The position numbers were made by a program, and so were the translations under genes. Shown one piece after another: positions 12,143-53,418 of a stretch of 64,000 nt of DNA. Origin of the DNA: an uncultured Anaerolineales bacterium (GTDB lineage Bacteria; Chloroflexota; Anaerolineae; CG2-30-64-16); NCBI GenBank assembly GCA_964474695.1, contig CAYYTK010000006.1, positions 95,526 to 159,525 of the forward strand, given 5' to 3'. Under the pieces are notes generated by a model that was not told the DNA's origin, did not search any database, and saw nothing but the letters and a program-made list of their open reading frames with translations. Positions within the stretch are counted from its first letter, which is position 1; each line of letters starts with the position of its first letter.

Positions 12143-13537
12143 TCAGGCGGCCGGCAGGCTATCACGATATCTTTCAGGCGTGTCAATATCCTGGAGGATT
12201 TCGGGTGAGGGCCAATCCACCCAGGCGATCTCATCCGCATGGGCCTGGATGATGGGCCGCGCGCCGACGTCACCCTGGAGCCGCTCGAACTCCCTGAAAG
12301 TGGCAGCGTCGAAAAGGACGGGATTGCCGCGCTGGCCGTTCCAACGTGGGGCAACGACCGGCGCCAACGTCTCGCGATGGCGCTGGATTAGTGCCGAAAG
12401 CAGCTCAGGTGAGATCCCAGGCTGATCCGCCAGCAAAAAGAGGACGGTCTTGCATTCCCTCCCCCTCTCCTGAACCGATAGTTCAGGAGAGGGGGTCAGG
12501 GGGGTGAGGACCGTCCTGAGTCCCGCTTGCACGCTGCGGCTCTGCCCGGCCGCCCAATCGGGCGCCCGCACGATCTGCGCATTCAGGCCGGCAAGCGCCG
12601 CACACACCTGCTCCGCCCCGGCGCCTACCGTGACCACCACCCGTTCGACGTCCGGGCAGGCCAGCGCCTGTTCGGCGACGTGCGCCACCAGCTGCCGGCC
12701 GCGCCAGGGCAGCACCTGTTTCAGCGCGCCGAAACGCTTCGCCTCGCCCGCGGCCAGGACGACCGCGCCGGTCCGCCCCCAAACTTCGCGCACCGGATCG
12801 TCCGCTTGCGCCGCGCCGATCAGGACAGTATCAATCCGGTCGTGTTGCAGCAGCCGGCGGGAAATCTCGCGCGCGGCGACCAGGCTGGCTTCATCTTCGG
12901 CTTTGTTCAGGAATGGAATCAGCCGCGCGCCGGGGGGTGCGCCTTTCGCACCGCCCTCCGGGTGCGCCAACACCGCGGCAACCAGGCCGGGAGTCACGGG
13001 GTCGCCCAGGGCCGCGCCGGTCAGCGCCGCGATCCGTTCGGGGCGATGGACGTGTTCGGCGTCCAGCGGCCGCCCCAGCACATCCAGCCCCATCATCGGG
13101 ACGACGATGGTTGCGCTGGTCGGAATCACCGGTTCGTGTGCTGCGGGCGCCTTGAACGGCAGCCGCCGCGAGCCATCTGCTTCCATCAGCAAAGCATCGA
13201 CTGCAGGGTGCGCCGCGACGCGGTCCAGCAGCTCGGGCGGCACACCTTGCACCTTGTCCTGCTCCACAACGGTGCCGCCCGCGATCAGCACATGGCCGTG
13301 CTCGGCGAGCGTGCTTCCCAGTTGCGCCAGCAGTGCACCTTCCCCTTCCAGGATCAAACGCGCCGGCGCGCGGGCCATCTGCGTCACGAAGATCTTGGTG
13401 GTCATCGTCGTAACCACGCGTTGCCCCGCCGACCGCAATTCTTCGGCCAGCCGGAACATAGTCGTGGTCTTGCCGCCGCCGCCGGTGAAGGCGACGACTT
13501 CTTTGGGGCGGATACGCAAAGCAGTCACAAGCAGCAT
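12143..13537 (-). CDS. fusion protein: YqeC-like selenium-dependent molybdenum-hydroxylase accessory protein (N-terminal) + MocA/YgfJ-like molybdenum cofactor cytidylyltransferase (C-terminal)
   Basis: N-terminal VVAFTGGGGKTT P-loop typical of the YqeC family. C-terminal VVLAAGEAKRFG...K NTP-transferase domain as in MocA/YgfJ. Start chosen at MLLVTALRIRPKEVV (13537). Starting at 13660 would overlap the next gene. Confidence 0.7.
   Translation of the reverse strand: MLLVTALRIRPKEVVAFTGGGGKTTTMFRLAEELRSAGQRVVTTMTTKIFVTQMARAPARLILEGEGALLAQLGSTLAEHGHVLIAGGTVVEQDKVQGVPPELLDRVAAHPAVDALLMEADGSRRLPFKAPAAHEPVIPTSATIVVPMMGLDVLGRPLDAEHVHRPERIAALTGAALGDPVTPGLVAAVLAHPEGGAKGAPPGARLIPFLNKAEDEASLVAAREISRRLLQHDRIDTVLIGAAQADDPVREVWGRTGAVVLAAGEAKRFGALKQVLPWRGRQLVAHVAEQALACPDVERVVVTVGAGAEQVCAALAGLNAQIVRAPDWAAGQSRSVQAGLRTVLTPLTPSPELSVQERGRECKTVLFLLADQPGISPELLSALIQRHRETLAPVVAPRWNGQRGNPVLFDAATFREFERLQGDVGARPIIQAHADEIAWVDWPSPEILQDIDTPERYRDSLPAA
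12461..12495. repeat. perfect 15-bp inverted repeat (CCCCCTCTCCTGAAC-CGATA-GTTCAGGAGAGGGGG) inside the MocA-like domain coding sequence
   Basis: Read directly. On the minus strand it encodes a ...PSPELSVQERGRE... loop in frame. Confidence 0.85.
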
Positions 13538-13560
13538 GGTCTCACTCTTACCGGCGGCAA

Positions 13561-14997
13561 CTACATCCAGCGCAGCCCTTTCGGGTAATGGCTCTTCAGC
13601 CGGTCGCCCGTGCGCTTGCCCCAGCCGATAGGATAGCCATCCACGGCTATCAAGGTCCACCCCGCTTCCCCAGGGCTGGCCGGTGATTCTCCGCGCAAGT
13701 AGGCCGCCAGCTCCCGCACTTCCGCCGGCAGACTCGACACGCGGCGAGCATCACCCACGGATAGACCGAGCGCGAGCGCATGGCTTGGCTCAAAGCGGTG
13801 GCCTGCCTGCTGAGCACCCTTCACGGTCCCCAGCCACCAGCCGGGATGCAGGAAGCGCAGCCCGGTGAGATCGGGCAGTCCTTGCGGCAGCGCATAGAGA
13901 TAGGAGCCGACGAGGGCCAGCCGTTCCGCAGCGGGCAGGCTGTTCAAATTTGCTGCGCAAAACGCCGCGAAGGCCTCTGCAACGAGCTTCGGAGGTCCTG
14001 CCGGCTTCCAGGGCTTCACTGTTGACGTCGCGGCGTGCATGCCGGCGGTCGATGGATCCGGTGATCGGTCCAACACGGCGACAAAGTGGCCTTCCCCCGG
14101 TCCTACATGCGGCCACAGACGGACGGGGCGGGCCAGGGCAGGCGTAGAGTCTTCCCCTGACGGAATCCAATCGGGTCTGCCGGGCGAGAACCCGGGGTGA
14201 CGGGGTGGCGCGACCAACTGGAAGTCGGCATGGCGCGCCAGAAAGCGCGCCACCGTGACCTCGTTTTCTTCCGGGTTAAATGTGCACGTCGAATACACCA
14301 GCCGTCCGCCGGGGCGCACCATCCGGGCGGCTTGTTCCAGGATGCCGGACTGGCGCAGCGCGCAGCCGTGTATCAGTTCGGGCGCCCACTCGCGCCGCGC
14401 AGCCTCGCCCTTGCGCATCATTCCCTCGCCTGAGCAGGGCGCATCGACTAAAACGCGGTCAAAGAAGCCGGGGAAGCGTTGGGCAAGTCGCTCCGGCGTC
14501 TCATTGGTGATGGCCGCGTTGCGCGCGCCCCAGCGCTCCAAATTCCCGGCCAACTCCCAAGCGCGCTTGGGAATCACCTCGTTGGCAATCAGCAGGCCTT
14601 GCCCCTGCATCAACGCGGCGATGTGCGTCGCCTTGCCGCCGGGCGCGGCCGCCAGGTCCAAAACACGCTCACCGGGTCGCGGCGCCAGCAACTCCGCCAC
14701 GGCCATCGCGGATGGGTCCTGGAGATAGTAGAGTCCGGCGGCATGATAAGGATGCTTGCCCGGTGCGACTTCACCGGCAAGCACGAAGCCGGCCGGACAC
14801 CAGGACACGGGCGCAGCGGCATCCATGCCGAACGCCAGGCCTGCGAGGCCGCGGAAGTCATCCACGCCGATTTTCAGCGTATTGACGCGCAAACCAACGC
14901 TCGGCGGCGCGTCAAAACTGGCGCTGAACGAAGCGTACTCATCGCCCAAAAGATCGCGCATCCGTGCCAAAAAGCCCAACGGCAACTCAAGACTCAT
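13561..14997 (-). CDS. RsmB/RsmF-family 16S rRNA m5C methyltransferase (NOL1/NOP2/Sun)
   Basis: SAM-binding LDLAAAPGGKATHIA. Catalytic D-A-P-C-S-G (VLVDAPCSGEG) and TCTxNPEENE motifs. Start at MSLELPLGF. Confidence 0.8.
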   Translation of the reverse strand: MSLELPLGFLARMRDLLGDEYASFSASFDAPPSVGLRVNTLKIGVDDFRGLAGLAFGMDAAAPVSWCPAGFVLAGEVAPGKHPYHAAGLYYLQDPSAMAVAELLAPRPGERVLDLAAAPGGKATHIAALMQGQGLLIANEVIPKRAWELAGNLERWGARNAAITNETPERLAQRFPGFFDRVLVDAPCSGEGMMRKGEAARREWAPELIHGCALRQSGILEQAARMVRPGGRLVYSTCTFNPEENEVTVARFLARHADFQLVAPPRHPGFSPGRPDWIPSGEDSTPALARPVRLWPHVGPGEGHFVAVLDRSPDPSTAGMHAATSTVKPWKPAGPPKLVAEAFAAFCAANLNSLPAAERLALVGSYLYALPQGLPDLTGLRFLHPGWWLGTVKGAQQAGHRFEPSHALALGLSVGDARRVSSLPAEVRELAAYLRGESPASPGEAGWTLIAVDGYPIGWGKRTGDRLKSHYPKGLRWM

Positions 14998-15028
14998 GTG
15001 ATCACGCACCACGCACCACGCACCACAC

Positions 15029-16741
15029 CTACAACCCCATCGCGCACCCGTCCGCCCGCATATCACTCCCGCCGCACAGCACACCCGTCTCCGGGTCTCG
15101 TAGGATGATCTGTCCGCGGCCGAAAAGTGCGCGCTCGTGGCCGGCCACGACATCGACAGGATGTCCCATCTCGGCCAGGGCCGTCACCGTCGCGGCCGGG
15201 ATGCCCTCTTCCAGGCTCACGCGGCCCGCGGCTGTGCCGCTGTTGATACAAAAGCGCGGTCGGTCAAGCGCTGCCTGTGGATCAAGCCGGTCGTCAGCCA
15301 GCGCCAGCACCACCTGCGCGTGGCCCTGGGGCTGCATAAAGCCGCCCATGACACCGAAGGAGGCGATAAGTAGATTGGTAGATTGGGAATTGATGGAACC
15401 GTCCACCAATCTACCATCTACCACTCCACCGTCCCGGGTGATCATCGCTGGGATGATCGTGTGGTAGGGCCGCTTGCCGGGCGCGAGCGCGTTCGGGTGC
15501 CCCGGTTCCAGGCTGAAATTGTGACCGCGGTTCTGCAGGCTGAAGCCCCAGCCGGACGGCACGATGCCGGTGCCGAATCCCATATAGTTGCTGTTGATGA
15601 AGGAGCAGGCATTGCCTTGTTCGTCCACGACGCTGAAGTAGACCGTATCGGAGCCGGCGACCGGGGCGCCGCGACGTTGGTCGAGGGTGGTGTGTGCCGG
15701 ATCGATCAGCCCTCGACGTTCGGCGGCATACTCCTTCGAGAGTAACTGGTCGATTGGTATGTCGGCAAACTGGGGATCGGCGACATACCAGCGCGTATCG
15801 GCGAAGGCCAGGCGCATCGCCTCGATCTCAAGGTGTAGTCGTTCGGGTGCCAGGGGTTCGCGGCCGGCGAGGTCGAAGCCCTCCAGGATGTTCAGCGCCA
15901 ACAGCGCGGCCAACCCCTGGCCGTTCGGCGGGCATTCCCAGATGCGCAAGCCGCGGTAGGTTGTGCTGATCGGCTCGTCCCAGGTGCTGGTGTGCGCCGC
16001 CAGATCCTCGACCGTCAGGCAGCCGCCCGCGGCCTGTACGGCGGCTGCGATCGCTTCGGCGATGCGCCCCTGGTAATAGGCGGCCTTGCCGCCCTCGGCC
16101 ACGGCGCGCAGGGTGCGGGCCAGGCCGGGATTCCGAAACACCTCGCCGGGCTTGGGCGCGCGGCCATCGATCGTCAGTTCCCGGCCGCCGGCTGCCTGGC
16201 GCAACTGCCGTTCGGCCCCGCGCGCCCAGAAGTAAGCGGTGATGGGTGCGACCGGGAAGCCCTCCTCTGCCAGGCGAATGGCCGGCGCGAGGACGCGGCT
16301 CAGCGGCAGGCGGCCGTGGCGCTCGACCAGGTCGCACCAGCCCGCGCACGCACCGGGCACGGTGATCGTGTAAGGATGGTAGGGGGGCAGTTCCACGCCG
16401 CACCCGGCGGCGCCGAATCCCTCGCGTTGCAGCCGTTCCAATGTCAGCGCGGCCGGCGCGCGGCCCGATCCGTTCAGCGCGGTGATCTTCCCGTTGGCGG
16501 CCTCCGGCGTTACCGGCGGAGCAGCCTCGTAGAACAGCGCAAAGCAGTCGCCGCCGATGCCGGTGGAGGTGGGCTCGGTCACGTTCAGGGCCGCGGCGGT
16601 CGCGACCGCGGCATCGGCCGCGTTGCCGCCTGCGGCCAGGATCTCCAGCCCGGCAGCCGCAGCTAACGGCTGCGATGCCGCCACCATGCCGCGGCGGCCG
16701 TAGACGGGCGAGCGGCGGGACGCGAAAATCAGCTCAGACAT
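15029..16741 (-). CDS. ggt: gamma-glutamyltransferase
   Basis: Typical GGT large- and small-subunit motifs. Carries an extra ~20-codon in-frame segment (VVDGRLVDGSINSQSTNL) made of family-B octamers. Confidence 0.85.
   Translation of the reverse strand: MSELIFASRRSPVYGRRGMVAASQPLAAAAGLEILAAGGNAADAAVATAAALNVTEPTSTGIGGDCFALFYEAAPPVTPEAANGKITALNGSGRAPAALTLERLQREGFGAAGCGVELPPYHPYTITVPGACAGWCDLVERHGRLPLSRVLAPAIRLAEEGFPVAPITAYFWARGAERQLRQAAGGRELTIDGRAPKPGEVFRNPGLARTLRAVAEGGKAAYYQGRIAEAIAAAVQAAGGCLTVEDLAAHTSTWDEPISTTYRGLRIWECPPNGQGLAALLALNILEGFDLAGREPLAPERLHLEIEAMRLAFADTRWYVADPQFADIPIDQLLSKEYAAERRGLIDPAHTTLDQRRGAPVAGSDTVYFSVVDEQGNACSFINSNYMGFGTGIVPSGWGFSLQNRGHNFSLEPGHPNALAPGKRPYHTIIPAMITRDGGVVDGRLVDGSINSQSTNLLIASFGVMGGFMQPQGHAQVVLALADDRLDPQAALDRPRFCINSGTAAGRVSLEEGIPAATVTALAEMGHPVDVVAGHERALFGRGQIILRDPETGVLCGGSDMRADGCAMGL
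15371..15430. repeat. family-B (TAGATTGG / CCAATCTA) composite inverted repeat lying in frame inside ggt
   Basis: TAGATTGGTAGATTGG ... CCACCAATCTACCATCTACCA. The two halves are reverse complements of each other. Confidence 0.85.
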
Positions 16742-16750
16742 GTGAAAGCC

Positions 16751-18349
16751 TTACGGTTGAGGCACGTGGTAGATGCGTACTTCATATCCGCCATCGGTGA
16801 AGACCTTGACTTCCTCAAAGGTGCTGAAGAACGTTTCGTAACGTGCGATCGCAGGCGCGAACTGGACCGGGTCGGCATAGAAACGCCGGAACATGGTCTC
16901 GCTGAATACCAGGTAGTCGTACCCCTCGGTGACGTACCACTCTGCCGGGTGATCGTTCAGCTTGTAAAAGCCCTGGACCACGAATTTCTGCGGGTCGATC
17001 CAGGGGGAATACGACTCGATGCCAATGCGCGATCCCGCTGGCAGGTTGTGCTCGATCCACTCGCGAGCCGTGTCGAGGCTATCCGGCTGCATGAGGCGCA
17101 CCGTATCGCGGACGGTCCCGACCAGGGGAAAGATCAGTGCGACGACAAGAAGGGCAGCCGCGGCGTTTAGCTGGATGCCGGTGTAGCCAGAGGCCCGGGA
17201 CGGCAGAAGGCTCACAAGCCAGTAGGCAGCCAGGACCGCGAAAAGGGGCAGAAGCGGCAGCGCCGTGCGTTCGAAGTGGACGGCGAATGCGCTGATGAAG
17301 AGCAGATAACTCAGAGATGTTATGGCAATTAAGAGCGCGCCGCGCGAACGCCGGAAAATGCCCCAAATGATCCCGGCGGCTGCCAGCAGCAGCATCGGAC
17401 CTTCGGTCCGCCAGAAAAAACTCAGGTACCATGCCAAAGAGTTTCCGGCGTTCCCGGCATGGCCTCCGGTGTAATGGCGAACGTCGATCAGAGCGCCCTT
17501 GAGGAAGGTTTGGTAATCCAGTACGGCGAATGGTGTCGTCGCCACGAAGAGAATGAGGCTGACAACCCCGGCAGCGTACAGCCGCCAATCCTTGATCCCG
17601 CGCCAGCCCGAACGAAGAAAGTGCGCCAGGACGATTGCCAGGGCGAAGACCGCGGCGTTGTACTTGGTCCCTGCGGCCAGGCCGAGCGCCGCGCCAGCCA
17701 GGATGTAGTGGCGTGTTCGTCCCTCCTGGCAGACGCGCCACGCTGCCCAGGTGACAAGGGTTGTGAAAAAGGCGAGCGGTCCATCCGGGATCAGGAACCG
17801 GCTGTTGGCGACCAGGGTTGGCGACAAAGCTGCCCACAGACCCGCCAGCACGCCGCCAAAGGTAGAATGGGTGATCCGGCGTGCGAGATCGAAAGTCAGC
17901 GCCACCGTGGCGACGCCTAACACCGCGGAAAAGCAGCGTCCGCCGAGGAACAGCATCGGTAGGGTTGTCTTGCCGGACCCGCCGATGAGCAGCACGGGCT
18001 CCGCTAGATCGGCCAGGCTGCCGAATACGCCGAACAGCCGACCGATACCGTAGTACACCAGGTAGCCGAAGGCATTGATATAGTAGTAGAGCGATGGGTA
18101 AATGAAATCGTGTGGATTCGGATCGCCCGTCTTGACCATCTTTAAGACCTGGACGACCCAGAACGGCTCATCGGGATGCTCGACGTAAGGCAGCCCGAAA
18201 TTGATCCCCCACAGCCGCAGGCCAAGCGCAACGACCAGCACGCCCGCCAGGCACCACGACGCGCAGCGTGTCATGGGGTCGAGAAACGATCGAGCGACTG
18301 GCATCGCTGAAAAACGGTATCCGGTGTAGCCCCCAGCCCGGTCTGCCAT
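16751..18349 (-). CDS. glycosyltransferase family 39 (ArnT/PMT-like) polytopic membrane protein
   Basis: Many TM segments with the GT39/PMT-like N-terminal loop region. AAGGAGAT lies 5 nt upstream of ATG 18349. Confidence 0.65.
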   Translation of the reverse strand: MADRAGGYTGYRFSAMPVARSFLDPMTRCASWCLAGVLVVALGLRLWGINFGLPYVEHPDEPFWVVQVLKMVKTGDPNPHDFIYPSLYYYINAFGYLVYYGIGRLFGVFGSLADLAEPVLLIGGSGKTTLPMLFLGGRCFSAVLGVATVALTFDLARRITHSTFGGVLAGLWAALSPTLVANSRFLIPDGPLAFFTTLVTWAAWRVCQEGRTRHYILAGAALGLAAGTKYNAAVFALAIVLAHFLRSGWRGIKDWRLYAAGVVSLILFVATTPFAVLDYQTFLKGALIDVRHYTGGHAGNAGNSLAWYLSFFWRTEGPMLLLAAAGIIWGIFRRSRGALLIAITSLSYLLFISAFAVHFERTALPLLPLFAVLAAYWLVSLLPSRASGYTGIQLNAAAALLVVALIFPLVGTVRDTVRLMQPDSLDTAREWIEHNLPAGSRIGIESYSPWIDPQKFVVQGFYKLNDHPAEWYVTEGYDYLVFSETMFRRFYADPVQFAPAIARYETFFSTFEEVKVFTDGGYEVRIYHVPQP

Positions 18350-18367
18350 ATCTCCTTCCTTACTACA

Positions 18368-18967
18368 CTACTCGCTGAGAAGGTTGACCTGCCCTGTCTC
18401 CAGCTCATAGCGCGCGCCAACGACCAGCAGCTTCTCGTCTGCGATCAACCGTGTCAGGATGGGCTGTGCCGCGCGAAGCTCTGCCACGGCCAGCTTGACA
18501 TTGGCCGTAATTGCGCCGTCGATAACGGCGTCGACACTGCTTCTTCCGGAGGTTGCCGCTTGTTCAATGGCCGGCCGGATGCGCTCGATGATGCTGCCGA
18601 TGTGCCCGGGCGCATGGCCGCCCTGGACCGCAGCGGTCACTGCACCGCAACGGCTGTGTCCCAACACCATCACAACGCTCACGCCCAGGTGCTCGGCCGC
18701 GTATTCGACGCTCCCCAGCATCGCATCATCCAGCACATTGCCGGCATCGCGGATCACAAACAGGTCGCCCAGGCCGCAGTCAAAGATGATCTCCGGCGGC
18801 ACGCGCGAGTCGGAGCAGGTGATGATCGCGGCGAACGGCTCTTGCCCGTTGATGATTTCGGTCCGGCGATCGGTCGTCTGGTGCGGACGCGTCGGGTGTC
18901 CGTCCATAAAGCGCCGATTGCCTTCTAATAAGATTCCCAGAGCTTGGGCAGGATTCAGGGTTGTCAT
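18368..18967 (-). CDS. beta-class carbonic anhydrase
   Basis: CSDSRV...HSRCGA zinc-ligand motifs (Cys, His, Cys) with typical length. Confidence 0.85.
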   Translation of the reverse strand: MTTLNPAQALGILLEGNRRFMDGHPTRPHQTTDRRTEIINGQEPFAAIITCSDSRVPPEIIFDCGLGDLFVIRDAGNVLDDAMLGSVEYAAEHLGVSVVMVLGHSRCGAVTAAVQGGHAPGHIGSIIERIRPAIEQAATSGRSSVDAVIDGAITANVKLAVAELRAAQPILTRLIADEKLLVVGARYELETGQVNLLSE

Positions 18968-18972
18968 CGCCG

Positions 18973-19572
18973 CTACCCCTTTTCGCCGATGATGAGATCA
19001 GTCAGGCGCCGCTTCGGCACATGATGGACCCCCTCGGCGTCGCGCCAGTACTTGATGTCGCCGTCCGGGCCGATCTCTTCAACGACCACTGTCTCCTTCG
19101 GCTTGCCGAGCGCCAGCACCACCAGGATTTCGTAGCGTTCGGGGATGGCCAACGCCTGGCGCAGTTGGTCGCGCTTCACCGAGCCGATGATGCAGCCGCC
19201 CAACCCGCGTTCCACTGCGCCCAGCAGGATGTTCTGCACGGCCAGGCCATGATCGACGCCGACGTAGGCCGACAGGCTCAGCGCCGTATCGGCCAGGACA
19301 ACGATATAGGCTGCCGGCCGTTCGCCCTCTTCCGGCCCGGGCCAATCCTTCAGGTAGCCGGCCCAAGCCAGCGTGGGGAAGATTTCAGCGTTGGTCTCCC
19401 GGTCGGTGCTGAGGATGTAACGCAGCGGTTGGCGGTTAGCCGCCGACGCCGACAGCCGCGCCAGGTCGACCAGCTCGCGCAGGGTCGCAATGGCGATGGG
19501 CGCGTCCTCATAGAAACGGCGATAGGTGCGATTCCGCGTCACGAGTGACGGCAACACCAGGTCTTTCAGCAT
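18973..19572 (-). CDS. nitroreductase-family protein
   Basis: Nitroreductase fold signature (RRS.R.F....I....L..L) over about 200 aa. GGAGG RBS present. Confidence 0.75.
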   Translation of the reverse strand: MLKDLVLPSLVTRNRTYRRFYEDAPIAIATLRELVDLARLSASAANRQPLRYILSTDRETNAEIFPTLAWAGYLKDWPGPEEGERPAAYIVVLADTALSLSAYVGVDHGLAVQNILLGAVERGLGGCIIGSVKRDQLRQALAIPERYEILVVLALGKPKETVVVEEIGPDGDIKYWRDAEGVHHVPKRRLTDLIIGEKG

Positions 19573-19613
19573 ATGGCGCCTCCGGAGGTAAGTTTAGGTG
19601 GGCGTTATCATAA

Positions 19614-19651
19614 CATAGCCCCGTGAGCCTTCACAAGCTCACGGGGCTATG
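19614..19651. repeat. perfect 15-bp-arm hairpin (CATAGCCCCGTGAGC-N8-GCTCACGGGGCTATG) downstream of the XDH operon
   Basis: Read directly. Lies between the XDH Mo-subunit stop (19804) and the nitroreductase start. No T-tract follows, so if it terminates transcription it is not a classical terminator. Confidence 0.8.
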
Positions 19652-19803
19652 TAGAATGCGTTTAGCGTTGGAGGCAGAACTAAACGGATCATCCTGAGCG
19701 GAACGGAGCCGCCCAGTCGTGCGGGCGGCGGAGTGCAGTCGAAGGATGCGGCTCTGCCCGATGGCCGCTGCGCACCCTTCGACTGCGCACTGCGGTGCTC
19801 CGC

Positions 19804-23615: not shown

Positions 23616-23633
23616 AATCGTCCTCTTATTAAC

Positions 23634-25039: not shown

Positions 25040-25049
25040 ACAAGTTTCC

Positions 25050-45131: not shown

Positions 45132-45150
45132 CTTTCTCTCCTGGCCTTTG

Positions 45151-45197: not shown

Positions 45198-45212
45198 ACT
45201 TCAGTCGAAACG

Positions 45213-46208
45213 TTACGGATTGACGACGATGCTGCCGTCCGTGATGCCCTTGATGGCCGCCTCGGCAGCCTGCTTGACATCATCCGGGAGCTTGTAAGCC
45301 GGGTTGAAGACGACCTTCAAGCCGCCGTTCTTGAGCTGCAGGGTGAATGTTTCGCCGCCCAGCTTGTTGGCCTTGCGATTCTCGATGATCTGCTTCAAGA
45401 TGCCGACCCAGTCATACTGCTGGCTGGCGACCACGATCTCGGGAGCCAGCGAGGCCTGGTCCTGTTGCGTGCCGAACCACAGCACATTACCCTTCTCTTT
45501 CGCCGCGCCGATCGATCCCACCACCGACTGCGAGGAGCCGGTCAACACGTCCGCGCCTGCGGCGATGTGCGTCTTGGCCGCCTCGGTCATCAGCGCAACA
45601 TCGGAGAAGGAGTTGGTCCATGTCTTGTTGACTTTGATGTTCGGATCAACGGAGGCTACGCCCTGTACAAAGCCGTCAATGTAGGTCTTCGCGTCACCCA
45701 CTTCGACAGGCCCCGTGACGCCGATGACCTTGCTCTTGCTCAGCTTCGCGGCCATCACGCCGTTGACGTAACCGCCCTCGTGCGCTGCCGGCGTATAGGC
45801 GTAAACATTCGTCAGGCCGAAGGTGTTAACGTCAGTGCCCCAGGCGAAGATCGTCTTGGGGAAATCCGGGGCGATCTCCTGGATCAAGGGGCCGTATTGC
45901 GAACCATGGCCGATCACGATGTCGAAGCCCTGGCTGGCATAGTCGCGCAGCGCGTTCCCGGCATCCGCCACCTTGAACATGTTTTCCGAGTACTTCAGCT
46001 CCACGGCCGACTCGCCGCCCATTTCGGCTTGGATCGCCTTGAGGGCTGACCACATCGACTGGCTGAAGGCCAGGTCGGTCGTCGCGCTGGGCATCACCAC
46101 GGCGATACGCAGCGCCTTGGCGGCCTGCGGCGCAGGGGTAGCCGCGCCGCCGCAACCAGCCAGCAGCGCGATCACCATGACAACAACAAACAACGTGCGA
46201 ACCTTCAT
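45213..46208 (-). CDS. BMP-family (Med/PnrA-like) ABC substrate-binding lipoprotein
   Basis: MKVRTLFVVVMVIALLAGCGG signal peptide with a lipobox. AAGGAGAAGG RBS upstream of ATG 46208. The long N-terminal ORF-track extension is rejected. Confidence 0.85.
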   Translation of the reverse strand: MKVRTLFVVVMVIALLAGCGGAATPAPQAAKALRIAVVMPSATTDLAFSQSMWSALKAIQAEMGGESAVELKYSENMFKVADAGNALRDYASQGFDIVIGHGSQYGPLIQEIAPDFPKTIFAWGTDVNTFGLTNVYAYTPAAHEGGYVNGVMAAKLSKSKVIGVTGPVEVGDAKTYIDGFVQGVASVDPNIKVNKTWTNSFSDVALMTEAAKTHIAAGADVLTGSSQSVVGSIGAAKEKGNVLWFGTQQDQASLAPEIVVASQQYDWVGILKQIIENRKANKLGGETFTLQLKNGGLKVVFNPAYKLPDDVKQAAEAAIKGITDGSIVVNP

Positions 46209-46240
46209 GCTACCTTCTCCTTTGTGATGGTAAGATTGGA

Positions 46241-47188
46241 TTAGTGTGCCCCTCGCTCGAAGGGCTTGTTGAGCGCCGCCGGCCCGCGCACCCGGCTCAC
46301 GGTGAGGGCCAACGCCACGATGGTCAATAGGTAGGGGAGCATCACCATGACATCGGGTGGAATATCTACCCCCAATACCTCTTTTCCCAGTACTTGCATC
46401 CACAACTGGAACGCATTAACCGTGCTGAAGAGCAGCGCGCCCAGCATGATGCCCAGCGGCCGCCAGCCGCCGAAGTAGACCAACGCCACGGCAATAAAGC
46501 CCATGCCCGCAGTCAGGTTCTCTTGGAACAGGTTGACCAATGCCAGGGAGAGCGATGCGCCCGCCAGCCCGGCCAACATCGAGCCGATGCATGTCGCGAT
46601 GTAACGCGTCCGGTCGACGTTCACGCCCAGCGAGTCGGCGGCGGCAGGGGTTTGTCCCACCGCCTTGAGCCGTAAGCCCCACGTGGTCTTGTCCAGAATG
46701 AACCATGCCAACGGCACGAGGAGGAACGCGCCATACACCGGCAGGCTTTGGTCGAAGAGGATCTCACCGATGTAGGGGATGTCACCCAGCAACGGGATCT
46801 TGACGGCCTGAAACCCTGTGACGGTCTTGACCGTGCCGATAGTCGTCTTGAACAGCAGGGTGGAGAGGCCCAACCCGAACATGTAGAGGCCGATGCCGCT
46901 GATGCCTTGCTCAGCCTTCAGGGTGACGCTGATGAATGCCATCAACAAGCCCATCAACGCACCGATCAGGATGCCGGCCAGCAAACCCAGCCAGAGGTTG
47001 CCCGTGTTCAGCGCCACGAAGAAAGCCCCGTACGCGCCCAGCAGCATGATGCCGTCGACGCCCAGGTTGACTACGCCGGCGAGCTCCGTAATCGCTTCGC
47101 CGATAGCGCCATACAGGTACGGCGTCGCCAGGCGAATGGCCGAAGTGAGGATGCCGATGATGATGGCAGCGGTAGTAAGCTCGTTCAT
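46241..47188 (-). CDS. ABC transporter permease (BMP-system, second permease)
   Basis: Polytopic membrane protein starting MNELTTAAIIIG. ATGA overlap with the upstream permease. Confidence 0.8.
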   Translation of the reverse strand: MNELTTAAIIIGILTSAIRLATPYLYGAIGEAITELAGVVNLGVDGIMLLGAYGAFFVALNTGNLWLGLLAGILIGALMGLLMAFISVTLKAEQGISGIGLYMFGLGLSTLLFKTTIGTVKTVTGFQAVKIPLLGDIPYIGEILFDQSLPVYGAFLLVPLAWFILDKTTWGLRLKAVGQTPAAADSLGVNVDRTRYIATCIGSMLAGLAGASLSLALVNLFQENLTAGMGFIAVALVYFGGWRPLGIMLGALLFSTVNAFQLWMQVLGKEVLGVDIPPDVMVMLPYLLTIVALALTVSRVRGPAALNKPFERGAH

Positions 47189-48321
47189 GACGCGGCCTCC
47201 GTCTTCCTTTTTGCCAGCGCGATGGCCCGGCGGGTTGCCAGGCGCCGCGACCACATCTGTGAGCCGATGACCAACAGCACGATCAAGCCCAACAGGGTGT
47301 CGATCAGCGCCGAAGGCACCTGGACCGCCCGCTGCATCATGTCTCCACCCACCAGCAGACTACCGAAGAGCCAGGAGGCAGGGATCAGGCCCAGCGGATG
47401 CAGGCCGCCGAACAGCGCGGCTACGATGCCCGTGAAGCCGTAACCGCTGGTGACCCCCTCCAGCAGGCGGTGCTGCACGCCGATGACCTCGATTACGCCG
47501 GCCAGTCCTGCGAACCCGCCGGCCAGCGTCAGCGACAGCATCTGGTAGAATGGCACCGGGATGCCGGCGTATTTGGAGGCTTCAGGGCTGAGACCCACCG
47601 CGCGGATGCGATAGCCGATCGTCGTGCGCCATAGGAAGATGTACACCACCACTGCCAGCAGCACCGCGACGATAGCGCCGGTATGAAGGAGGGTTTGCGG
47701 GATCAGGCGCCCCAGCCAGACCGCTTGGGGCAATCGTTCGGACTGCGGCAGGAACGTGCCTGCCGCCACGCCCGCCGGATCGATGAGCGGGCCGCGGATC
47801 AGGAGGTTCATCAACTGGAGGGCGATGGCGTTCATCATGACCGTGCTCAGGATCTCGTTGACATTGAGCCTGGCCTTGAGGATGCCGGGAATGAAGCCCC
47901 ACAAGCAGCCGGCGATGAACCCCATGACCATCGTGGCCGGGATCAGCAGCGCGCTGGGCCAGGTGCGGAACTGCAGGGAAAACCAGGTGGCCATCAACGC
48001 GCCGGCGATGATCTGCCCTTCGCCGCCGATGTTGAGCACGCTGGCGCGAAATGCGATGCAGATGCCCAGGCCCACCAGCAGCAGCGGCGTTGCCTTGACC
48101 AGCGATTGCGTGAAGCCGGACATGGTGCCGAACACGCCCTTGACCATCGTGCCGTATGCAGTCAGGGGATTGGCTTTCAGCAGCAGAAGCATGACTGCTC
48201 CCACCAGCAGCGCGATCAGGATCGCCAGGACCGGCATTGCTGCTCTGAGCAGGAGTCCCTGCAAGTCGAATGCCGGCTTGCGAACTGAGTTTCGGGTGTC
48301 AATGGCCGTATCTGGCGGCAT
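47185..48321 (-). CDS. ABC transporter permease (BMP-system, first permease)
   Basis: Polytopic membrane protein. GGAGG RBS. Confidence 0.8.
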   Translation of the reverse strand: MPPDTAIDTRNSVRKPAFDLQGLLLRAAMPVLAILIALLVGAVMLLLLKANPLTAYGTMVKGVFGTMSGFTQSLVKATPLLLVGLGICIAFRASVLNIGGEGQIIAGALMATWFSLQFRTWPSALLIPATMVMGFIAGCLWGFIPGILKARLNVNEILSTVMMNAIALQLMNLLIRGPLIDPAGVAAGTFLPQSERLPQAVWLGRLIPQTLLHTGAIVAVLLAVVVYIFLWRTTIGYRIRAVGLSPEASKYAGIPVPFYQMLSLTLAGGFAGLAGVIEVIGVQHRLLEGVTSGYGFTGIVAALFGGLHPLGLIPASWLFGSLLVGGDMMQRAVQVPSALIDTLLGLIVLLVIGSQMWSRRLATRRAIALAKRKTEAAS

Positions 48322-48708: not shown

Positions 48709-49704
48709 CTATGTCCAGCTACCCAGCACCTTCATGTAGTTGGCCCGCTCGAAAGCGGTGGCATCGGCCACATTGCGCTGGCTGAGTGCGCCTTTCATCT
48801 GGCCGACCGACTCGTACTCGTGGAGTTCCATCCATTGCTGCAGGCCGGCCACCATATCACCGATTTTGCCGACGCCTTGGCCCAGCAGCACCGAGGCCAT
48901 GGTCGCGATATCTGCGCCGGCCATGATGGCCTTGACGACATCTTCCGCCGTGTCGACGCCGGTGCTGAGGGCCAGGGATGCGTTGATGCGGCCGTAAAGG
49001 ATGGCGATCCAACGCAGCGGCAGGCGCATCTCCCACGACGTGCTCAGCACCAGGTGCGGCGTGACGGCCAACTCCTCCAGGTCAAAGTCAGGCTGGTAGA
49101 AGCGGTTGAACAACACCAGGCCATCGGCGCCCGCACGATCGAGCCGAGCAGCCATATTGGGCAGCGCGCTGAAGAACGGGCTCAGCTTCATCGCTACCGG
49201 GATTTTCACCTGCGCCTTGACTTCGCGCAGGATCTCCAGATAGGTGTTTTCCACGCCCTCGCTTGTTAGCTCTGGCCGCGTAGGGATCAGGTAGACATTC
49301 AATTCCAGCGCATCCGCGCCAGCCTGCTCGATCAGCTTGGCGTAACGCGTCCAGCCGCCGGTGGTGACGCCGTTCAGGCTGCCGATAACAGGGATGTCTA
49401 TGGCAGCCTTGGCCTTGCGGATCAGTTCCAGATAGTCGTCCGGGCCGCCCTGGTAGTCTTTCGCCTTGGGGAAGTAGGACGTTGCTTCAGCCGACATGAA
49501 AGCTTCCTGCTCAACGGCAAGATGTTGAGTCATAGCTTCAATGTCGATTTGTTCCTCAAACAGCGAATACATCGTGACCGCCGCTGCACCGGCATCTTCC
49601 ATGGCTTTGATACCGCTGAGGCGCCGCGACAGCGGCGATGCTGACGGCACAATGGGGTTCTTGAGCTTAAGGCCCATATAGCGAGTCGTGAGATCTAGCA
49701 CCAT
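48709..49704 (-). CDS. dihydroorotate-dehydrogenase-like / dihydropyrimidine-dehydrogenase PreA-like TIM-barrel flavoprotein
   Basis: FMN-binding barrel of the DHOD/DHPD family (...PVIGSLNG...GADALELN...) over about 330 aa. Confidence 0.7.
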
Positions 49705-49875: not shown

Positions 49876-52800
49876 TCACTCTTTCGCGAAGCTCAGCGCC
49901 GCCATCTGCTCCAACTGGCGCCAGCGTGCCAAGACATCCTCTTGGGCCAGGTTGAGCAGCATCTCGGCATGTTCCTCGTCGCGCTTGGCCAACGAGCTGT
50001 AGCGGGTCTCCCGGTAGACGTAATCTTTCAGCGGGATTTTCGGCGCCTTGGAATCCAACGACAGCGGGTTCTTGCCTGCGGCCGCGCTGGTCGGATTATA
50101 GCGGTAGAGCGGCCAGGCGGCGCTGTCCACGGCCAGCTTTTGTTGGCCCATGCCCAAGGTCATGTTGATGCCATGCGCGATGCAGTGGCTGTAGGCGATA
50201 ATCAGGCTGGGGCCAGGGTATGCCTCAGCTTCCAGAAACGCTTTGACAGTCTGGGCATCGTTGGCGCCCATGGCCACCTGGGCGACGTAAATCGTCCCCT
50301 GGCTCATGGCGATGGCGCCCAGGTCTTTCTTGGAAATCGGCTTGCCGCCGGCTGCGAAGCGGGCCACCGCAGCGCGCGGGGTTGCCTTCGACGCCTGGCC
50401 GCCGGTGTTGGAGTAGACCTGCGTATCGAGCACCAGGACATTGATATCCAGCCCTGATGCCAACACATGATCCAGGCCGCCGTAGCCGATATCATAGGCC
50501 CAGCCGTCGCCGCCCATGATCCACACGCTGCGCTTCACCAGCATGTCGGCGATGCTGTTGAGCTGCGCGGCCCACGAGTCGGTCAGGCCCGCGAGCTTCG
50601 TCTTGAGCTCGACAACGCGGGCGCGCTGTTCGGCGATGCCTTTCTCACTGCTCTGATCGGCGGACAGCAGCCCGTCGACGAGCGCATCCCCTAACTCAGC
50701 GCGGTGTGTTTGGGCAAGCTCGCGCGCGAACTCATTGTGCTTGTCGACGGTCAAACGGAAGCCCATGCCGAACTCGGCATTATCTTCGAAGAGGCTGTTG
50801 GACCACGCCGGGCCGCGGCCTTCCTTATCCTGCGCCCAAGGCGTCGTCGGCAGGTTGCCGCCGTAGATGGAAGAGCAGCCGGTTGCATTGGCGACGATAG
50901 CGCGATCGCCGAAGAGTTGGCTGACCAGCTTGACATAGGGGGTCTCGCCGCAGCCTGAGCATGCGCCGGAGAACTCAAAGAGCGGTTGGAGCAATTGCGA
51001 ATTCTTGACGCTGTTCAGCGGGATCACCGTGCGGTCCAGCTCAGGCAGATCCAGGAAGAACTTGAAGTTGGCGCGCTCGGCGAAGCGGAGCGGCAGTTGG
51101 GGCTCCATGTTGATCGCCTTGTGCTTGGGTTCGCTCTTGCTCTTGGCCGGGCAGTTCTCAACACACAGGGCGCAGCCGGTGCAGTCTTCCGGCGCGACCT
51201 GGACGGTGTACTTCATGCCGGGCAGATCGCGGCTCTTGTAATCCACCGCCTTATAGGTCTCGGGCGCGCCGGCCAGGCTCTCCGGCGGGTAGACCTTGGT
51301 GCGGATGGCCGCGTGCGGGCACACCAGCGCGCACTTGCCGCACTGGATGCAGATCGAGGGATCCCAAACCGGAATTTCCAGCGCCAGGTTGCGTTTTTCC
51401 CACTGCGTGGTCGCCGTGGGCCAGGTGCCATCCACCGGGAACGCCGAAACAGGCAAGTTCTCGCCCTCGCCGAAGATGATCCGCGCCGTGACATCCTTGA
51501 CGAACGCCGGCGCCTCGTCGGAGACCGGCGACTCCCTCTTGAGCTTGCTGGTGACCTCGTTCGGGTACTTTACCTCGTACAGGTGCGTCAGCGTGTGATC
51601 TACGGCCGCGAAGTTCTGCTGCACCACCACCTCGCCGCGCTTGCCGTACGTATGGCGGATCGACTCCTTGATCTTCGCGATCGCCTCATCCTTGGGCAGC
51701 ACGCCGGAGATGGCGAAGAAGCAGGTCTGCATGATGGTGTTGATGCGGCCGCCCATGCCGGTCGCCTGCGCAACGCCGACCGCGTCGATGACGTAGAACT
51801 TCAGCTTCTTTTCGATGATCTGCGCCTGCACTTCCTGCGGGATACGATCCCAGACCTCATCCGGGCCGTAGGGGCTGGCGAGCAGGAAGGTCGCGCCCAC
51901 CTCCGCCTTGGCCAGCACGTTGACGCGCTCCAGGAAGGTCCACTGATGGCAGGCGATGAAGTTGGCGGACTCGATCAGGTTGGACAGGCGGATCGGCTCC
52001 GGGCCGAAGCGCAGGTGCGAGGTTGTGACCGTGCCGGCCTTCTTCGAGTCATAGTAGAAGTAGCCCTGGGCGTAGTTGTCGGTTTCCTGGCCGATGATGC
52101 GGATGGAGTTGTGGTTTGCGCCCACCGTGCCATCCGATCCCAGGCCGTAGAACAGCGCGCGCACGGCCCGCTTCGACTCGATGCTGTAGGTGGGGTCGTA
52201 GGCCAGGCTGGTGTGAGTGACATCGTCGTTGATACCGACGGTGAAGTGGTTCTTCGGAGTGCCTGCCGCCATGTTGTCGAACACGCCCTTGACCATCGCC
52301 GGCGTGAATTCCTTGCTGGCCAACCCGTAGCGCCCGCCCAGCACCTTGAATGTGCGGCCCATCTCGGCCGCGGCGGTCACGACGTCCTGGTAGAGCGGTT
52401 CGCCCGCGCTGCCCGGTTCCTTGCAGCGATCGAGCGCCGTCACGATCTTCGCGCTCGCCGGGATCGCGGCCATCAGGAGCTCGGCGCTGAACGGCCGGAA
52501 GAGATGCACCTTCACCACGCCGACCTTCTCGCCGCAGCAGCCGGCCAGGTCATCCACTGTACCGTGTGCAATATCCGCCGCGGAGCCCATCAGGACCAAA
52601 ACGCGCTCTGCATCGGGTGCGCCGACGTAATCGAAAAGCTGATACTGGCGGCCGGTCAGCTTGGCGAACTTATCCATCTCGTCCTGGACGATGGTCGGAA
52701 CGGCCAGGTAATACGAATTGGCCGCCTCACGCGCCTGGAAGTAGACGTCGGGGTTCTGGGCCGTGCCGCGGATGATCGGGCGTTCGGGATTCAGCGCACG

Positions 52801-53418
52801 TTGGCGGTGGGCGAACACCAGGTCATCGTCGATCATCGCGCTGATGTCCTCGTCGCTCAGCTCTTCGATCTTGCGGATCTCATGGCTGGTGCGGAAGCCA
52901 TCGAAGAAATGGATGAAGGGCACGCGCGACCGCAGCGTGGCAGCCTGGGCGATCAGCGCGATATCCATGACCTCTTGGGGATTGTTCGAGCAGAGCATGG
53001 CCCAGCCGGTGGACCGCGCGGCCATCACGTCGCTATGATCACCGAAGATCGAGAGGGCATGCGCTGCCAGTGCGCGGGCCGCGACGTGGAAAACCGTCGA
53101 GGTCAGCTCGCCCGAGATCTTGAACATGTTGGGGATCATGAGCAAGAGGCCTTGTGATGCGGTGAAGGTGGTGCTCAGGGCGCCGGTTTGCAGTGCACCG
53201 TGCACTGCGCCGGCCGCGCCGCCTTCCGATTGCATCTCAACCACAGTCGGCACCGTGCCCCAGATGTTCTTGCGCCCTTCAGCGCTCCACGCATCGGCCC
53301 ATTCGCCCATGTTGCTGGACGGCGTAATGGGGTAGATGGCGATGACTTCGTTGGTCTTGTGCGCAACGTAGGCGGCTGCCTCGTTGCCGTCAATGGTGAC
53401 GATTTCACGTCCTGACAT
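49876..53418 (-). CDS. pyruvate:ferredoxin (flavodoxin) oxidoreductase, single-polypeptide NifJ/PFOR type
   Basis: About 1180 aa with the PFOR domain order. Two 4Fe-4S motifs (CIQCGKCALVCP; CTGCALCVENCP), TPP-binding region and GGDGW motif. GGAGGG RBS at ATG 53418. Confidence 0.9.
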   Translation of the reverse strand: MSGREIVTIDGNEAAAYVAHKTNEVIAIYPITPSSNMGEWADAWSAEGRKNIWGTVPTVVEMQSEGGAAGAVHGALQTGALSTTFTASQGLLLMIPNMFKISGELTSTVFHVAARALAAHALSIFGDHSDVMAARSTGWAMLCSNNPQEVMDIALIAQAATLRSRVPFIHFFDGFRTSHEIRKIEELSDEDISAMIDDDLVFAHRQRALNPERPIIRGTAQNPDVYFQAREAANSYYLAVPTIVQDEMDKFAKLTGRQYQLFDYVGAPDAERVLVLMGSAADIAHGTVDDLAGCCGEKVGVVKVHLFRPFSAELLMAAIPASAKIVTALDRCKEPGSAGEPLYQDVVTAAAEMGRTFKVLGGRYGLASKEFTPAMVKGVFDNMAAGTPKNHFTVGINDDVTHTSLAYDPTYSIESKRAVRALFYGLGSDGTVGANHNSIRIIGQETDNYAQGYFYYDSKKAGTVTTSHLRFGPEPIRLSNLIESANFIACHQWTFLERVNVLAKAEVGATFLLASPYGPDEVWDRIPQEVQAQIIEKKLKFYVIDAVGVAQATGMGGRINTIMQTCFFAISGVLPKDEAIAKIKESIRHTYGKRGEVVVQQNFAAVDHTLTHLYEVKYPNEVTSKLKRESPVSDEAPAFVKDVTARIIFGEGENLPVSAFPVDGTWPTATTQWEKRNLALEIPVWDPSICIQCGKCALVCPHAAIRTKVYPPESLAGAPETYKAVDYKSRDLPGMKYTVQVAPEDCTGCALCVENCPAKSKSEPKHKAINMEPQLPLRFAERANFKFFLDLPELDRTVIPLNSVKNSQLLQPLFEFSGACSGCGETPYVKLVSQLFGDRAIVANATGCSSIYGGNLPTTPWAQDKEGRGPAWSNSLFEDNAEFGMGFRLTVDKHNEFARELAQTHRAELGDALVDGLLSADQSSEKGIAEQRARVVELKTKLAGLTDSWAAQLNSIADMLVKRSVWIMGGDGWAYDIGYGGLDHVLASGLDINVLVLDTQVYSNTGGQASKATPRAAVARFAAGGKPISKKDLGAIAMSQGTIYVAQVAMGANDAQTVKAFLEAEAYPGPSLIIAYSHCIAHGINMTLGMGQQKLAVDSAAWPLYRYNPTSAAAGKNPLSLDSKAPKIPLKDYVYRETRYSSLAKRDEEHAEMLLNLAQEDVLARWRQLEQMAALSFAKE

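Follow-up and report, generated by a model that had tools for sequence, protein, structure and literature searches.

The reductive pathway of anaerobic urate degradation was solved in gut bacteria in 2025 by Li et al. (10.1101/2025.05.19.654654; PMC12507026) and Liu et al. (10.1101/2025.04.24.650524; commentary in PMC12990295), with the activities of the Escherichia coli enzymes reconstituted in vitro (10.1101/2025.05.19.654654; 10.1101/2025.04.24.650524). According to both studies, XdhD-YgfM (DOPDH) reduces urate to 2,8-dioxopurine, which is reduced further by YgfK; SsnA then opens the ring to yield ureidomethyl-hydantoin, HyuA forms 2,3-diureidopropionate, its two ureido groups are removed by YgeW (phosphorolysis, coupled via YqeA to the formation of ATP) and YgeY (hydrolysis), and YgeX converts 2,3-diaminopropionate to pyruvate. 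The two studies disagree on which ureido group is cleaved first, and the published ATP yield is one in E. coli and none in Clostridioides difficile. All gut strains with the pathway were found to have YqeBC and SelD, both xanthine dehydrogenase (XDH) and DOPDH needing SelD (10.1101/2025.04.24.650524), and the SsnA neighbourhoods of Chloroflexota were described as having a luciferase-type F420-dependent reductase and neither YgfK nor UacX (10.1101/2025.05.19.654654). The environmental reach of the pathway was known before only from a similarity network. Here we describe a locus in a 64-kb window (the whole analysed stretch, 64,000 nucleotides of contig CAYYTK010000006.1 of an uncultured Anaerolineales bacterium; G+C ~63%) that quite likely encodes anaerobic fermentation of purines and uric acid by a variant of this reductive (2,8-dioxopurine) pathway. 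It is not a new kind of system; two of the steps, those of YgeX and HyuA, are served by different or missing enzymes.

This reading is carried, above all, by family membership. SsnA, YgfK, YgeY, carbamate kinase, YqeC, pyruvate:ferredoxin oxidoreductase (PFOR), a dihydroorotate dehydrogenase (DHOD)-like protein of the PRK07565 family and adenine deaminase (Ade) all pass curated cut-offs in NCBIfam scans, which covered all candidate genes of 12143-63571 and the larger open reading frames (ORFs) of the left flank (model scores are given throughout in bits vs. the curated cut-off); the first five are 35-57% identical to their E. coli homologues. SsnA (23634-24965, minus strand, as are all genes below unless stated otherwise; NF005540 558 vs. 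444, TIGR03314 529 vs. 455; 36% identical to E. coli SsnA), the marker enzyme of Li et al., is predicted to open the reduced pyrimidine ring as described by these authors (10.1101/2025.05.19.654654). Immediately upstream, YgfK (25050-28349; TIGR03315 915 vs. 835; Fer4_20 and Pyr_redox_2 domains; 37% identity to E. coli YgfK over 1062 aa) would be the Fe-S flavoenzyme responsible for the reductive dearomatisation of 2,8-dioxopurine. YgeY (36884-38101; TIGR03526 444 vs. 321; 38% identity) is an M20 amidohydrolase predicted to hydrolyse a ureido group, and the carbamate kinase in the role of YqeA (33030-33998; NF009007 416 vs. 266, TIGR00746 378 vs. 358) is 57% identical to E. coli YqeA. A preliminary description of this DNA, made from the letters and the ORFs, had attributed the locus to anaerobic purine degradation, and in this it agrees with the profiles, since TIGR03172, TIGR03314, TIGR03315 and TIGR03526 all pass. 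Three other models that it had nominated (TIGR03310, TIGR03313 and TIGR03316) fail; because four pass, the proteins as a set do not belong to unrelated families, such as generic aldehyde oxidoreductases. The host is Chloroflexota-like, as had been suspected: the best matches of the CysK-like protein discussed below, among one-genome-per-species contigs, come nearly all from metagenome-assembled genomes (MAGs) of Anaerolineae and other Chloroflexota at 70-92% identity (protein-database matches reach 96%), and its closest related locus (L005) has the same gene order, namely XDH2 - YgeY - ATCase-like - YgeW-like - carbamate kinase - ThrC-like - CysK-like - YgfK - SsnA - XDH1. An exact-sequence look-up found the SsnA sequence on two short metagenome contigs only.

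Compared with the E. coli K-12 cluster (ygeW-ygeX-ygeY-hyuA-yqeA ... ygfK-ssnA-ygfM-xdhD), the locus shares orthologous members of the SsnA, YgfK, YgeY, carbamate kinase and YqeC families, an XDH-family enzyme beside ssnA-ygfK, a YgeW-related transferase near carbamate kinase and a MocA-like domain linked to YqeC. The differences are equally marked: a pair of ThrC-like and CysK-like pyridoxal 5'-phosphate (PLP) enzymes stands in place of the absent YgeX; the window has neither HyuA nor YqeB; the transferase related to YgeW is shortened, scores below the family cut-off and is accompanied by an extra aspartate transcarbamoylase (ATCase)-like transferase; a fused FAD and FeS protein with a separate molybdenum (Mo) subunit forms the XDH, vs. 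YgfM plus the FeS-Mo protein XdhD in E. coli; BMP-type ATP-binding cassette (ABC) transporters are found instead of UacT/XanQ permeases, and GntR proteins instead of the sigma-54 activator YgeV; and PFOR is adjacent. With YgeX and HyuA missing, the expectation of the preliminary description that the chemistry may depart from the canonical cluster appears well founded. The C. difficile variant, where UacX replaces YgfK and UacY replaces YgeW/YqeA, likewise illustrates that steps of the pathway, including ureido removal, undergo non-orthologous replacement. However, both ureido groups are hydrolysed in C. difficile and yield no ATP, whereas the present locus, with two transferases and carbamate kinase, could gain two ATP; the latter also keeps YgfK, and its PF01180 protein, a PFOR-linked PRK07565 member, is unlikely to be a UacX. 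The Chloroflexota SsnA neighbourhoods of Li et al. share the phylum and the SsnA marker with this locus but differ in YgfK, which is present at full length in the window and in 8 further loci, mostly of Chloroflexota MAGs, and in the F420 genes, which the window does not contain. Thus, the statement that Chloroflexota lack YgfK fails for this lineage, which corrects a published generalisation, and both YgfK and F420-type versions appear to exist in the phylum. F420-related genes (for an F420-dependent NADP oxidoreductase and an F420-0:gamma-glutamyl ligase) were observed next to SsnA or XDH in two related Chloroflexota loci (L038, 11505-12964; L031, 11854-12633), in line with the F420-type variant of Li et al. 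The survey of Liu et al. (10.1101/2025.04.24.650524) counted genomes in which four or more of seven proteins exceeded fixed identities to their C. sporogenes counterparts; judging from the 36-38% identity to E. coli YgfK, SsnA, YgeW and YgeY, the present locus might fall below several of these thresholds. Among the papers covered by our literature search, none deals with the ThrC-like/CysK-like pair or with a Chloroflexota cluster of such composition.

The PLP pair supplies the second line of evidence. The CysK-like enzyme (29390-30850; 486 aa) is of fold type II, resembles CysK/O-acetylserine sulfhydrylases, gives only weak CysK/PALP matches (CysK 94 vs. 351) and belongs to a highly conserved family of at least 8000 homologues (E<=1e-10) named only 'cysteine synthase' or 'PLP-dependent enzyme'. 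In an alignment with cysteine synthases, the PLP lysine (AHK), the carboxylate-binding Asn loop (STGNY), the phosphate loop and the serine opposite the pyridine nitrogen all find their counterparts. Since these active-site residues, typical of beta-eliminating and beta-replacing enzymes, are kept as in O-acetylserine sulfhydrylases, the enzyme appears to be built for forming aminoacrylate from a beta-substituted alanine, and the late intermediates of the pathway are beta-substituted alanines, matching this chemistry. The ThrC-like enzyme (30949-32277), with an N-terminal Cys-rich zinc-ribbon-like motif, scores just below PRK08197 (301.5 vs. 303), and its best solved relatives are threonine synthases; a ~27-aa insertion (ISIGSQSAQVGVGLIGAEKPQRDVSQNPPLQ), which is found only in the window protein and not in the consensus of 53 relatives, splits its hidden Markov model match in two. 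The pair shares the PLP lysine, Asn loop and phosphate loop with genuine CysK and ThrC but differs from them by scores well below or just below the cut-offs, by extensions of ~80-100 residues at both ends of the CysK-like protein and by a catabolic rather than biosynthetic context. An AlphaFold2 model of the CysK-like protein, built from a 29-sequence alignment in which the only alignable homologues were >=76% identical, was too poor for use (mean predicted local distance difference test score 61.7, PLP subdomain <50) and was set aside.

A search with the CysK-like protein yielded 80 related loci (flanks limited to 10 kb, many contigs ending short; designated here L003, L004, L005 and so on), 54 of them with the ThrC-like gene, 37 with carbamate kinase and 35 with the YgeW-like transferase; the ThrC-like gene lies directly upstream of the CysK-like one in 45 of the 66 with enough sequence. 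No YgeX was found in any of the 80. In the window, the best tblastn match of YgeX (here and below, queries are E. coli K-12 proteins from NC_000913.3, searched against the 64 kb) reaches only 26% over 173 aa and falls on the ThrC-like gene, and the 2,3-diaminopropionate ammonia-lyase model NF006058 scores 59 vs. 276. The linkage of the pair to the pathway extends across phyla: it occurs inside otherwise canonical clusters of three other phyla, never alongside YgeX, being accompanied by YgeW and YgeY 69% and 54% identical to those of E. coli, as well as YgfK and SsnA, in a Terriglobia locus (L007), by YgeW and YgeY at 65% and 70% identity in a Desulfobacterales locus (L067), and by XdhD (58%) and YgfM in L069. 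Such a pattern looks like that expected for non-orthologous replacement of YgeX, and we propose that the CysK-like enzyme would cleave a beta-substituted alanine to pyruvate instead of YgeX. The two PLP enzymes, described at first as TrpB/ThrC-like additions to the canonical set, therefore look like substitutes for one of its members, and a large family known by a generic name would become linked to a defined pathway step.

A third element is the pair of carbamoyltransferases. The shortened YgeW relative (34732-35718; hereafter mini-YgeW) is 36% identical to E. coli YgeW and shares with it the motifs LNMQCDIYHPFQ, WAYAASYLKPISVPQS, RFGMDVTLAYP and YMHPLPAD; it falls below both family cut-offs (NF005538 198 vs. 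453; TIGR03316 185 vs. 500) because the insertions and tails of YgeW are missing, and ornithine carbamoyltransferase models are likewise below cut-off, so that the label 'ygeW-like' of the preliminary description holds as a resemblance and not as membership. Its neighbour, the ATCase-like transferase (35731-36726), just passes TIGR00670 (239.4 vs. 236.95) and keeps all carbamoyl-phosphate ligands of E. coli PyrB along with R167. Its second-substrate site is altered: the segment TRVQKER, which holds R229 and Q231, reads EPVIQPDYT, with P at the position of R229, T at that of Q231 and a 5-aa insertion. By this residue test (R167 present, R229 and Q231 lost) the protein is not a PyrB, and the change is common to 8 of 9 cluster-linked orthologues, whereas a genuine PyrB-like gene in L008 keeps TRVQKER. 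R229 and Q231 are the residues of ATCase that bind the beta-carboxylate of aspartate. We infer that the ATCase-like enzyme may act on an N-alpha-carbamoyl amino acid with a non-carboxylate side chain, a description that 2,3-diureidopropionate would fit. The YgeW-like enzyme would act on the ureido group of the side chain, albizziin being a shorter homologue of citrulline. Two transferases and carbamate kinase could render both ureido groups ATP-yielding, for a total of two ATP per urate; in that case, YgeY would offer a hydrolytic alternative. The arginine deiminase pathway is a parallel, as there, too, a ureido group is phosphorolysed to carbamoyl phosphate, which then serves substrate-level phosphorylation; it differs in that the substrates here would be 2,3-diureidopropionate and mono-ureido products, and no arginine deiminase is present.

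Two XDH-family enzymes complete the upper part of the predicted pathway. XDH1 consists of a Mo subunit (19804-22161; Ald_Xan_dh_C, MoCoBD_1 and MoCoBD_2 domains; best model pucD, 526 vs. 784) with the catalytic Glu (GEMP), Arg (KRH) and GGRED motifs, and of a fused FAD + 2x[2Fe-2S] subunit (22158-23615; FAD_binding_5, CO_deh_flav_C, Fer2 and Fer2_2 in this order), the stop codon of which overlaps the Mo subunit start (ATGA). XDH2 (38932-42675) is built of three separate subunits, Mo (38932-41295), [2Fe-2S] (41288-41785) and FAD (41782-42675), all below cut-off (pucD 524 vs. 784, XdhC 180 vs. 217, XdhB 178 vs. 310); the active-site motifs of its Mo subunit are present, the enzyme has a GntR regulator of its own, and the same subunit arrangement is found in L005. 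The Glu and Arg on which purine hydroxylases rely are found in the Mo subunits of both enzymes. XDH1 is proposed as a candidate for the urate-to-2,8-dioxopurine reductase (the XdhD/DOPDH role), by context, because it adjoins ssnA-ygfK; XDH1-type Mo subunits also adjoin YgfK in L005, L007, L024 and L043. XDH2 is a candidate hypoxanthine/xanthine dehydrogenase. The term 'xdhD-like' of the preliminary description stands for a similarity only: identity to E. coli XdhD is 28-30%, and both enzymes are far below TIGR03313 for XdhD (286 for XDH1 and 249 for XDH2 vs. 1102). An assignment of the two XDHs by Glu606, proposed as XdhD-specific by Li et al., was attempted and dropped, as the residue falls in a gapped, unalignable segment. 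Two structural peculiarities of XDH1 were observed: its Mo subunit bears at residues ~540-590 a low-complexity, Q/N/S/H-rich insertion (HWHRPANQRNGESTNQRISESANHATRNAQHASDPQ) found neither in XDH2 nor in XdhA or XdhD of E. coli, and the domain order of its small subunit, FAD then 2x[2Fe-2S], is the reverse of that in the Rhodobacter-type XdhA model TIGR02963. The fused FAD/[2Fe-2S] form recurs beside YgfK in the same four loci.

The cofactor of these enzymes may include selenium. At the far end of the gene run lies a YqeC protein (12143-13537; Pfam YqeC and NTP_transf_3) fused to a MocA-like Mo-cofactor cytidylyltransferase domain. The YqeC part is a true family member (TIGR03172 194 vs. 73, residues 55-272; 35% identity to E. 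coli YqeC), and the MocA-like domain is below cut-off (TIGR03310 143 vs. 186, residues 299-499). The selenium-dependent type proposed in the preliminary description is thus plausible on the strength of YqeC as its single marker; the Mo subunits (430 for XDH1 and 416 for XDH2 vs. 830) fall short of TIGR03311, the model of selenium-dependent XDH.

The hydantoinase step has no candidate of the HyuA type at the locus, and profile scans revealed no cyclic amidohydrolases besides SsnA and adenine deaminase. The related loci fall into two classes by the identity of their ThrC-like gene to that of the window. Of the 21 loci in the more distant class (44-51% identical), 14 have a homologue of HyuA (36-42% identity to the E. 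coli protein) closely following the CysK-like gene, a linkage that supports placing the PLP pair in the lower pathway; these loci usually have a BMP ABC transporter and a family 2 glycosyltransferase (GT2) gene inside the module as well. In the class of the window, HyuA is missing also from the canonical-looking L007 and L067. Most likely, HyuA is encoded elsewhere in the genome; alternatively, the chemistry of this step may differ. Among the unmatched ORFs of the related loci, a Pfam search for a HyuA substitute returned only lineage-specific items, none of them conserved with the cluster (a GT2 glycosyltransferase, a VanZ-like protein, a metallo-beta-lactamase-fold protein in L017, transporters and a kinase). 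The alpha/beta hydrolase of the locus (28360-29220; Hydrolase_4, PF12146 265 bits) is a weak candidate for the missing ring-opening enzyme; it is not a general answer, as it occurs in only 2 of 71 loci. For the same reason it was rejected as a core component, being absent from L005 and from 69 of the 71 (present in L003 and L004).

In the proposed scheme, purines or nucleosides would enter via two BMP-type ABC importers, and adenine would be converted by adenine deaminase to hypoxanthine. One XDH, probably XDH2, would oxidise hypoxanthine and xanthine to urate, and the other, probably XDH1, would reduce urate to 2,8-dioxopurine, whose ring would be reduced by YgfK and opened by SsnA to the ureido-hydantoin. 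Following opening of the hydantoin ring, two ureido groups would be removed, the alpha-ureido group by the ATCase-like enzyme and the side-chain one by the YgeW-like transferase, YgeY being the hydrolytic alternative for ureido removal; carbamoyl phosphate and ADP would give ATP via carbamate kinase. The remaining beta-substituted alanine (2,3-diaminopropionate or albizziin) would be cleaved to pyruvate and ammonia by the ThrC-like/CysK-like pair in place of YgeX, and the adjacent PFOR would oxidise the pyruvate. Such a scheme would be balanced in redox terms, the two oxidations from hypoxanthine via xanthine to urate being set against the two reductions from urate via 2,8-dioxopurine to its dihydro form.

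Several observations weigh against this scheme. The proteins of this lineage are known from their sequences only. Neither XDH reaches any curated cut-off, the alignment at the Glu606 column is ambiguous, and the choice of which XDH catalyses which step is a guess from gene position. As the preliminary description had noted, yqeB, selD and a hydantoinase are missing from the window (no tblastn match of YqeB or SelD, nor of HyuA at E<1e-3), and among related loci of the closer class (ThrC-like gene at least 57% identical) a HyuA homologue lies within reach in only 1 of 22. A single YgeX suffices in E. coli, and the need for two PLP enzymes is unexplained; handling of D and L forms, two different beta-substituents or a ThrC-like:CysK-like complex are possible reasons. 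Finally, in most related loci the carbamoyltransferase-carbamate kinase-PLP module has no SsnA, YgfK or XDH within 10 kb, and ~10 loci have the CysK-like gene alone.

The PLP pair might mark a different lower branch of the pathway rather than a substitution at one step, a view suggested by clusters of its class devoid of both YgeX and HyuA in four phyla, which we consider rather unlikely while taking it seriously. PLP-dependent beta-elimination on a ureido or cyclic intermediate, bypassing the hydantoinase, is one possibility under such a view; both ureido groups would be phosphorolysed by the alpha-type (ATCase-like) and side-chain-type (YgeW-like) transferases, for a yield of two ATP per urate, and with a transporter of its own the module may constitute a stand-alone operon for ureide/hydantoin scavenging in many environmental Anaerolineae. 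The module has a second layout in ~20 Anaerolineae loci (L034, L037, L039, L049, L063 and similar), with the order ATCase-like transferase, YgeW-like transferase, carbamate kinase, BMP ABC transporter, ThrC-like, GT2, CysK-like, a conserved protein of ~185 aa that matches no Pfam family, HyuA and, after it, membrane proteins with a SelB-like elongation factor, and with no XDH, SsnA or YgfK within 10 kb. The same loci, together with the finding of SsnA in only 10 and YgfK in only 9 of the 80 loci vs. the far higher counts given above for the module genes, could also mean that two separate systems happen to adjoin here, a purine module (XDHs, YgfK and SsnA) and a transferase-kinase-PLP module, which may or may not include YgeY and would ferment a different ureido compound or hydantoin, taken up from outside, in place of the intermediate derived from urate. 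We regard this as improbable: the counts were obtained with flanks of 10 kb at most and many contigs ending short, the module is contiguous with YgfK, SsnA or XDH in the window and in nine other loci (L004, L005, L007, L024, L028, L038, L043, L067 and L069), these clusters hold no other candidate for the YgeX step, the transferase is YgeW-related and YgeY is a true member of its family.

Doubt may also be cast on the purine substrate itself. Both Mo subunits are below every curated XDH cut-off and score similarly with 4-hydroxybenzoyl-CoA reductase and aldehyde oxidoreductase models, and the NCBIfam names of the YgfK and YgeY models still mention selenium, so that the XDHs and YgfK might have an aldehyde or a non-purine N-heterocycle as substrate, or else selenate, in keeping with the old annotation 'putative selenate reductase', the purine interpretation being an artefact of annotation. 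This is very improbable in view of the activity of E. coli YgfK and SsnA shown on 2,8-dioxopurine with no requirement for selenate, the adenine deaminase and two PnrA-type importers flanking the locus, and the purine-hydroxylase Glu and Arg in both Mo subunits. Still harder to sustain is the classical clostridial ('xanthinase') fermentation of Rabinowitz, in which xanthine is degraded via imidazole intermediates to formiminoglycine and glycine with a selenium-dependent XDH: two XDH-family enzymes and YqeC are present, and clostridial purine loci were invoked in the preliminary description, but the NCBIfam scans of the candidate genes of 12143-63571 and the larger left-flank ORFs found no formiminotransferase, cyclodeaminase, glycine reductase or extra ring amidohydrolase, and the two proteins that mark the reductive route, SsnA and YgfK, score above their cut-offs. 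The variant reductive pathway thus stays the preferred interpretation of the locus. A complete-looking version of it in Anaerolineae-type Chloroflexota, which are abundant in sludge, sediment and soil, bears on the anaerobic turnover of purine nitrogen. With its two distinct transferases, ATCase-like and YgeW-like, the locus is well suited to settling the order of ureido cleavage, and the two-ATP version and the replacement of YgeX, if true, would be relevant to the engineering of uricolytic probiotics. The YgeX-replacing PLP pair, the consistent absence of HyuA in its class and the pairing of alpha-type and side-chain-type carbamoyltransferases would be of specialist interest.

Genes for uptake and for pyruvate oxidation adjoin the core. 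The first BMP/PnrA-type ABC transporter (43470-48321; ATPase, binding protein and two permeases; Bmp domain 143 bits) probably imports a purine or nucleoside, and a second one (53600-58631; Bmp domain 133 bits) lies outside the coordinates of the preliminary description. Along the direction of transcription, the first shows an unusual order (permease, permease, binding protein, ATPase), and the second runs from binding protein and ATPase to the two permeases; in the first, the start positions of the binding-protein and permease genes overlap and are uncertain. The adenine deaminase gene, noted before as a flanking ade, is divergent (58832-60544, plus strand, ATG at 58832) and passes TIGR01178 (587 vs. 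472). PFOR (49876-53418; TIGR02176 1823 vs. 911) and the DHOD-like protein (48709-49704; NF005741 469 vs. 303) were set apart in the preliminary description as non-canonical additions. In a metagenome scan with the DHOD-like protein (80 loci, L084-L163, with relatives 55-69% identical to the window protein in the PFOR-paired ones), 49 of the 54 loci with enough upstream sequence have a PFOR gene that shares the strand and ends <=600 nt before the DHOD-like one, and none of this set has SsnA or full-length YgfK. The two genes are thus a general, independently conserved unit and not a component of the cluster, although PFOR beside a pyruvate-producing pathway makes physiological sense. A role of the DHOD-like protein as a UacX-type purine reductase was considered and rejected, given its conserved position downstream of PFOR in these unrelated loci. 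A DHOD-like gene also stands beside the cluster in L004.

The extent of the locus differs from the single-strand block of about 40 kb (12143-53418) initially outlined. ORF listing together with NCBIfam/Pfam scans recovered every gene named for that block, all on the minus strand; the co-directional run is longer, comprising 34 genes over 46.5 kb from 58631 down to 12143, and the purine locus continues beyond 53418 with the second BMP ABC transporter and then ade, ending at 60544. Between yqeC-mocA and XDH1, five previously unmentioned co-directional genes with no evident link to purines occupy 13561-19572 (an RsmF-like methyltransferase, a gamma-glutamyltransferase, a PMT-type (PMT_2) membrane glycosyltransferase, a beta-carbonic anhydrase and a nitroreductase), so the block is not contiguous; the '40-kb supercluster' is a core joined to a distant accessory gene, yqeC-mocA, across ~6 kb of unrelated genes. 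In L005, a nitroreductase 76% identical to that of the window likewise comes after XDH1.

Within the core, four genes are accessory, as all are missing from L005, where the gene order is otherwise kept: the alpha/beta hydrolase, a DinB_2 ORF, a four-helix-bundle ORF and the first of two GntR/HutC-type regulators identified by profile scan (38168-38929; the second is at 42662-43489). The DinB_2 protein (32279-32950), which had been taken for a HicB-DinB fusion, matches DinB_2 with 48.8 bits, and its weak HicB/UPF0150-like N-terminus does not reach the HicB_lk_antitox cut-off (17.9 vs. 27); it was found in 0 of the 80 related loci. The four-helix-bundle protein (34060-34524) belongs to the 23S rRNA-intervening-sequence family (TIGR02436 87.6 bits; PF05635 85 bits), and its homologues in L014 and L068 (49-58% identity) likewise directly precede the carbamate kinase gene. 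The G+C content is 0.57-0.60 over the carbamoyltransferase and YgeY genes (34001-38000) vs. 0.62-0.68 in most of the window. Rfam at gathering thresholds and a tRNA search gave no matches in the window, and hence no purine or molybdenum-cofactor riboswitch at this threshold; in a scan of 19000-38900, counts of sigma-70 promoters and terminators were at or below shuffle expectation and are uninformative on transcription units. In the flanks, a homologue of AmmeMemoRadiSam system protein B is encoded at 6949-7824, with the other two genes of that system not nearby, and on the right a single ORF of 574 aa after nuoB (61368-63092) is a fusion of nuoC and nuoD.

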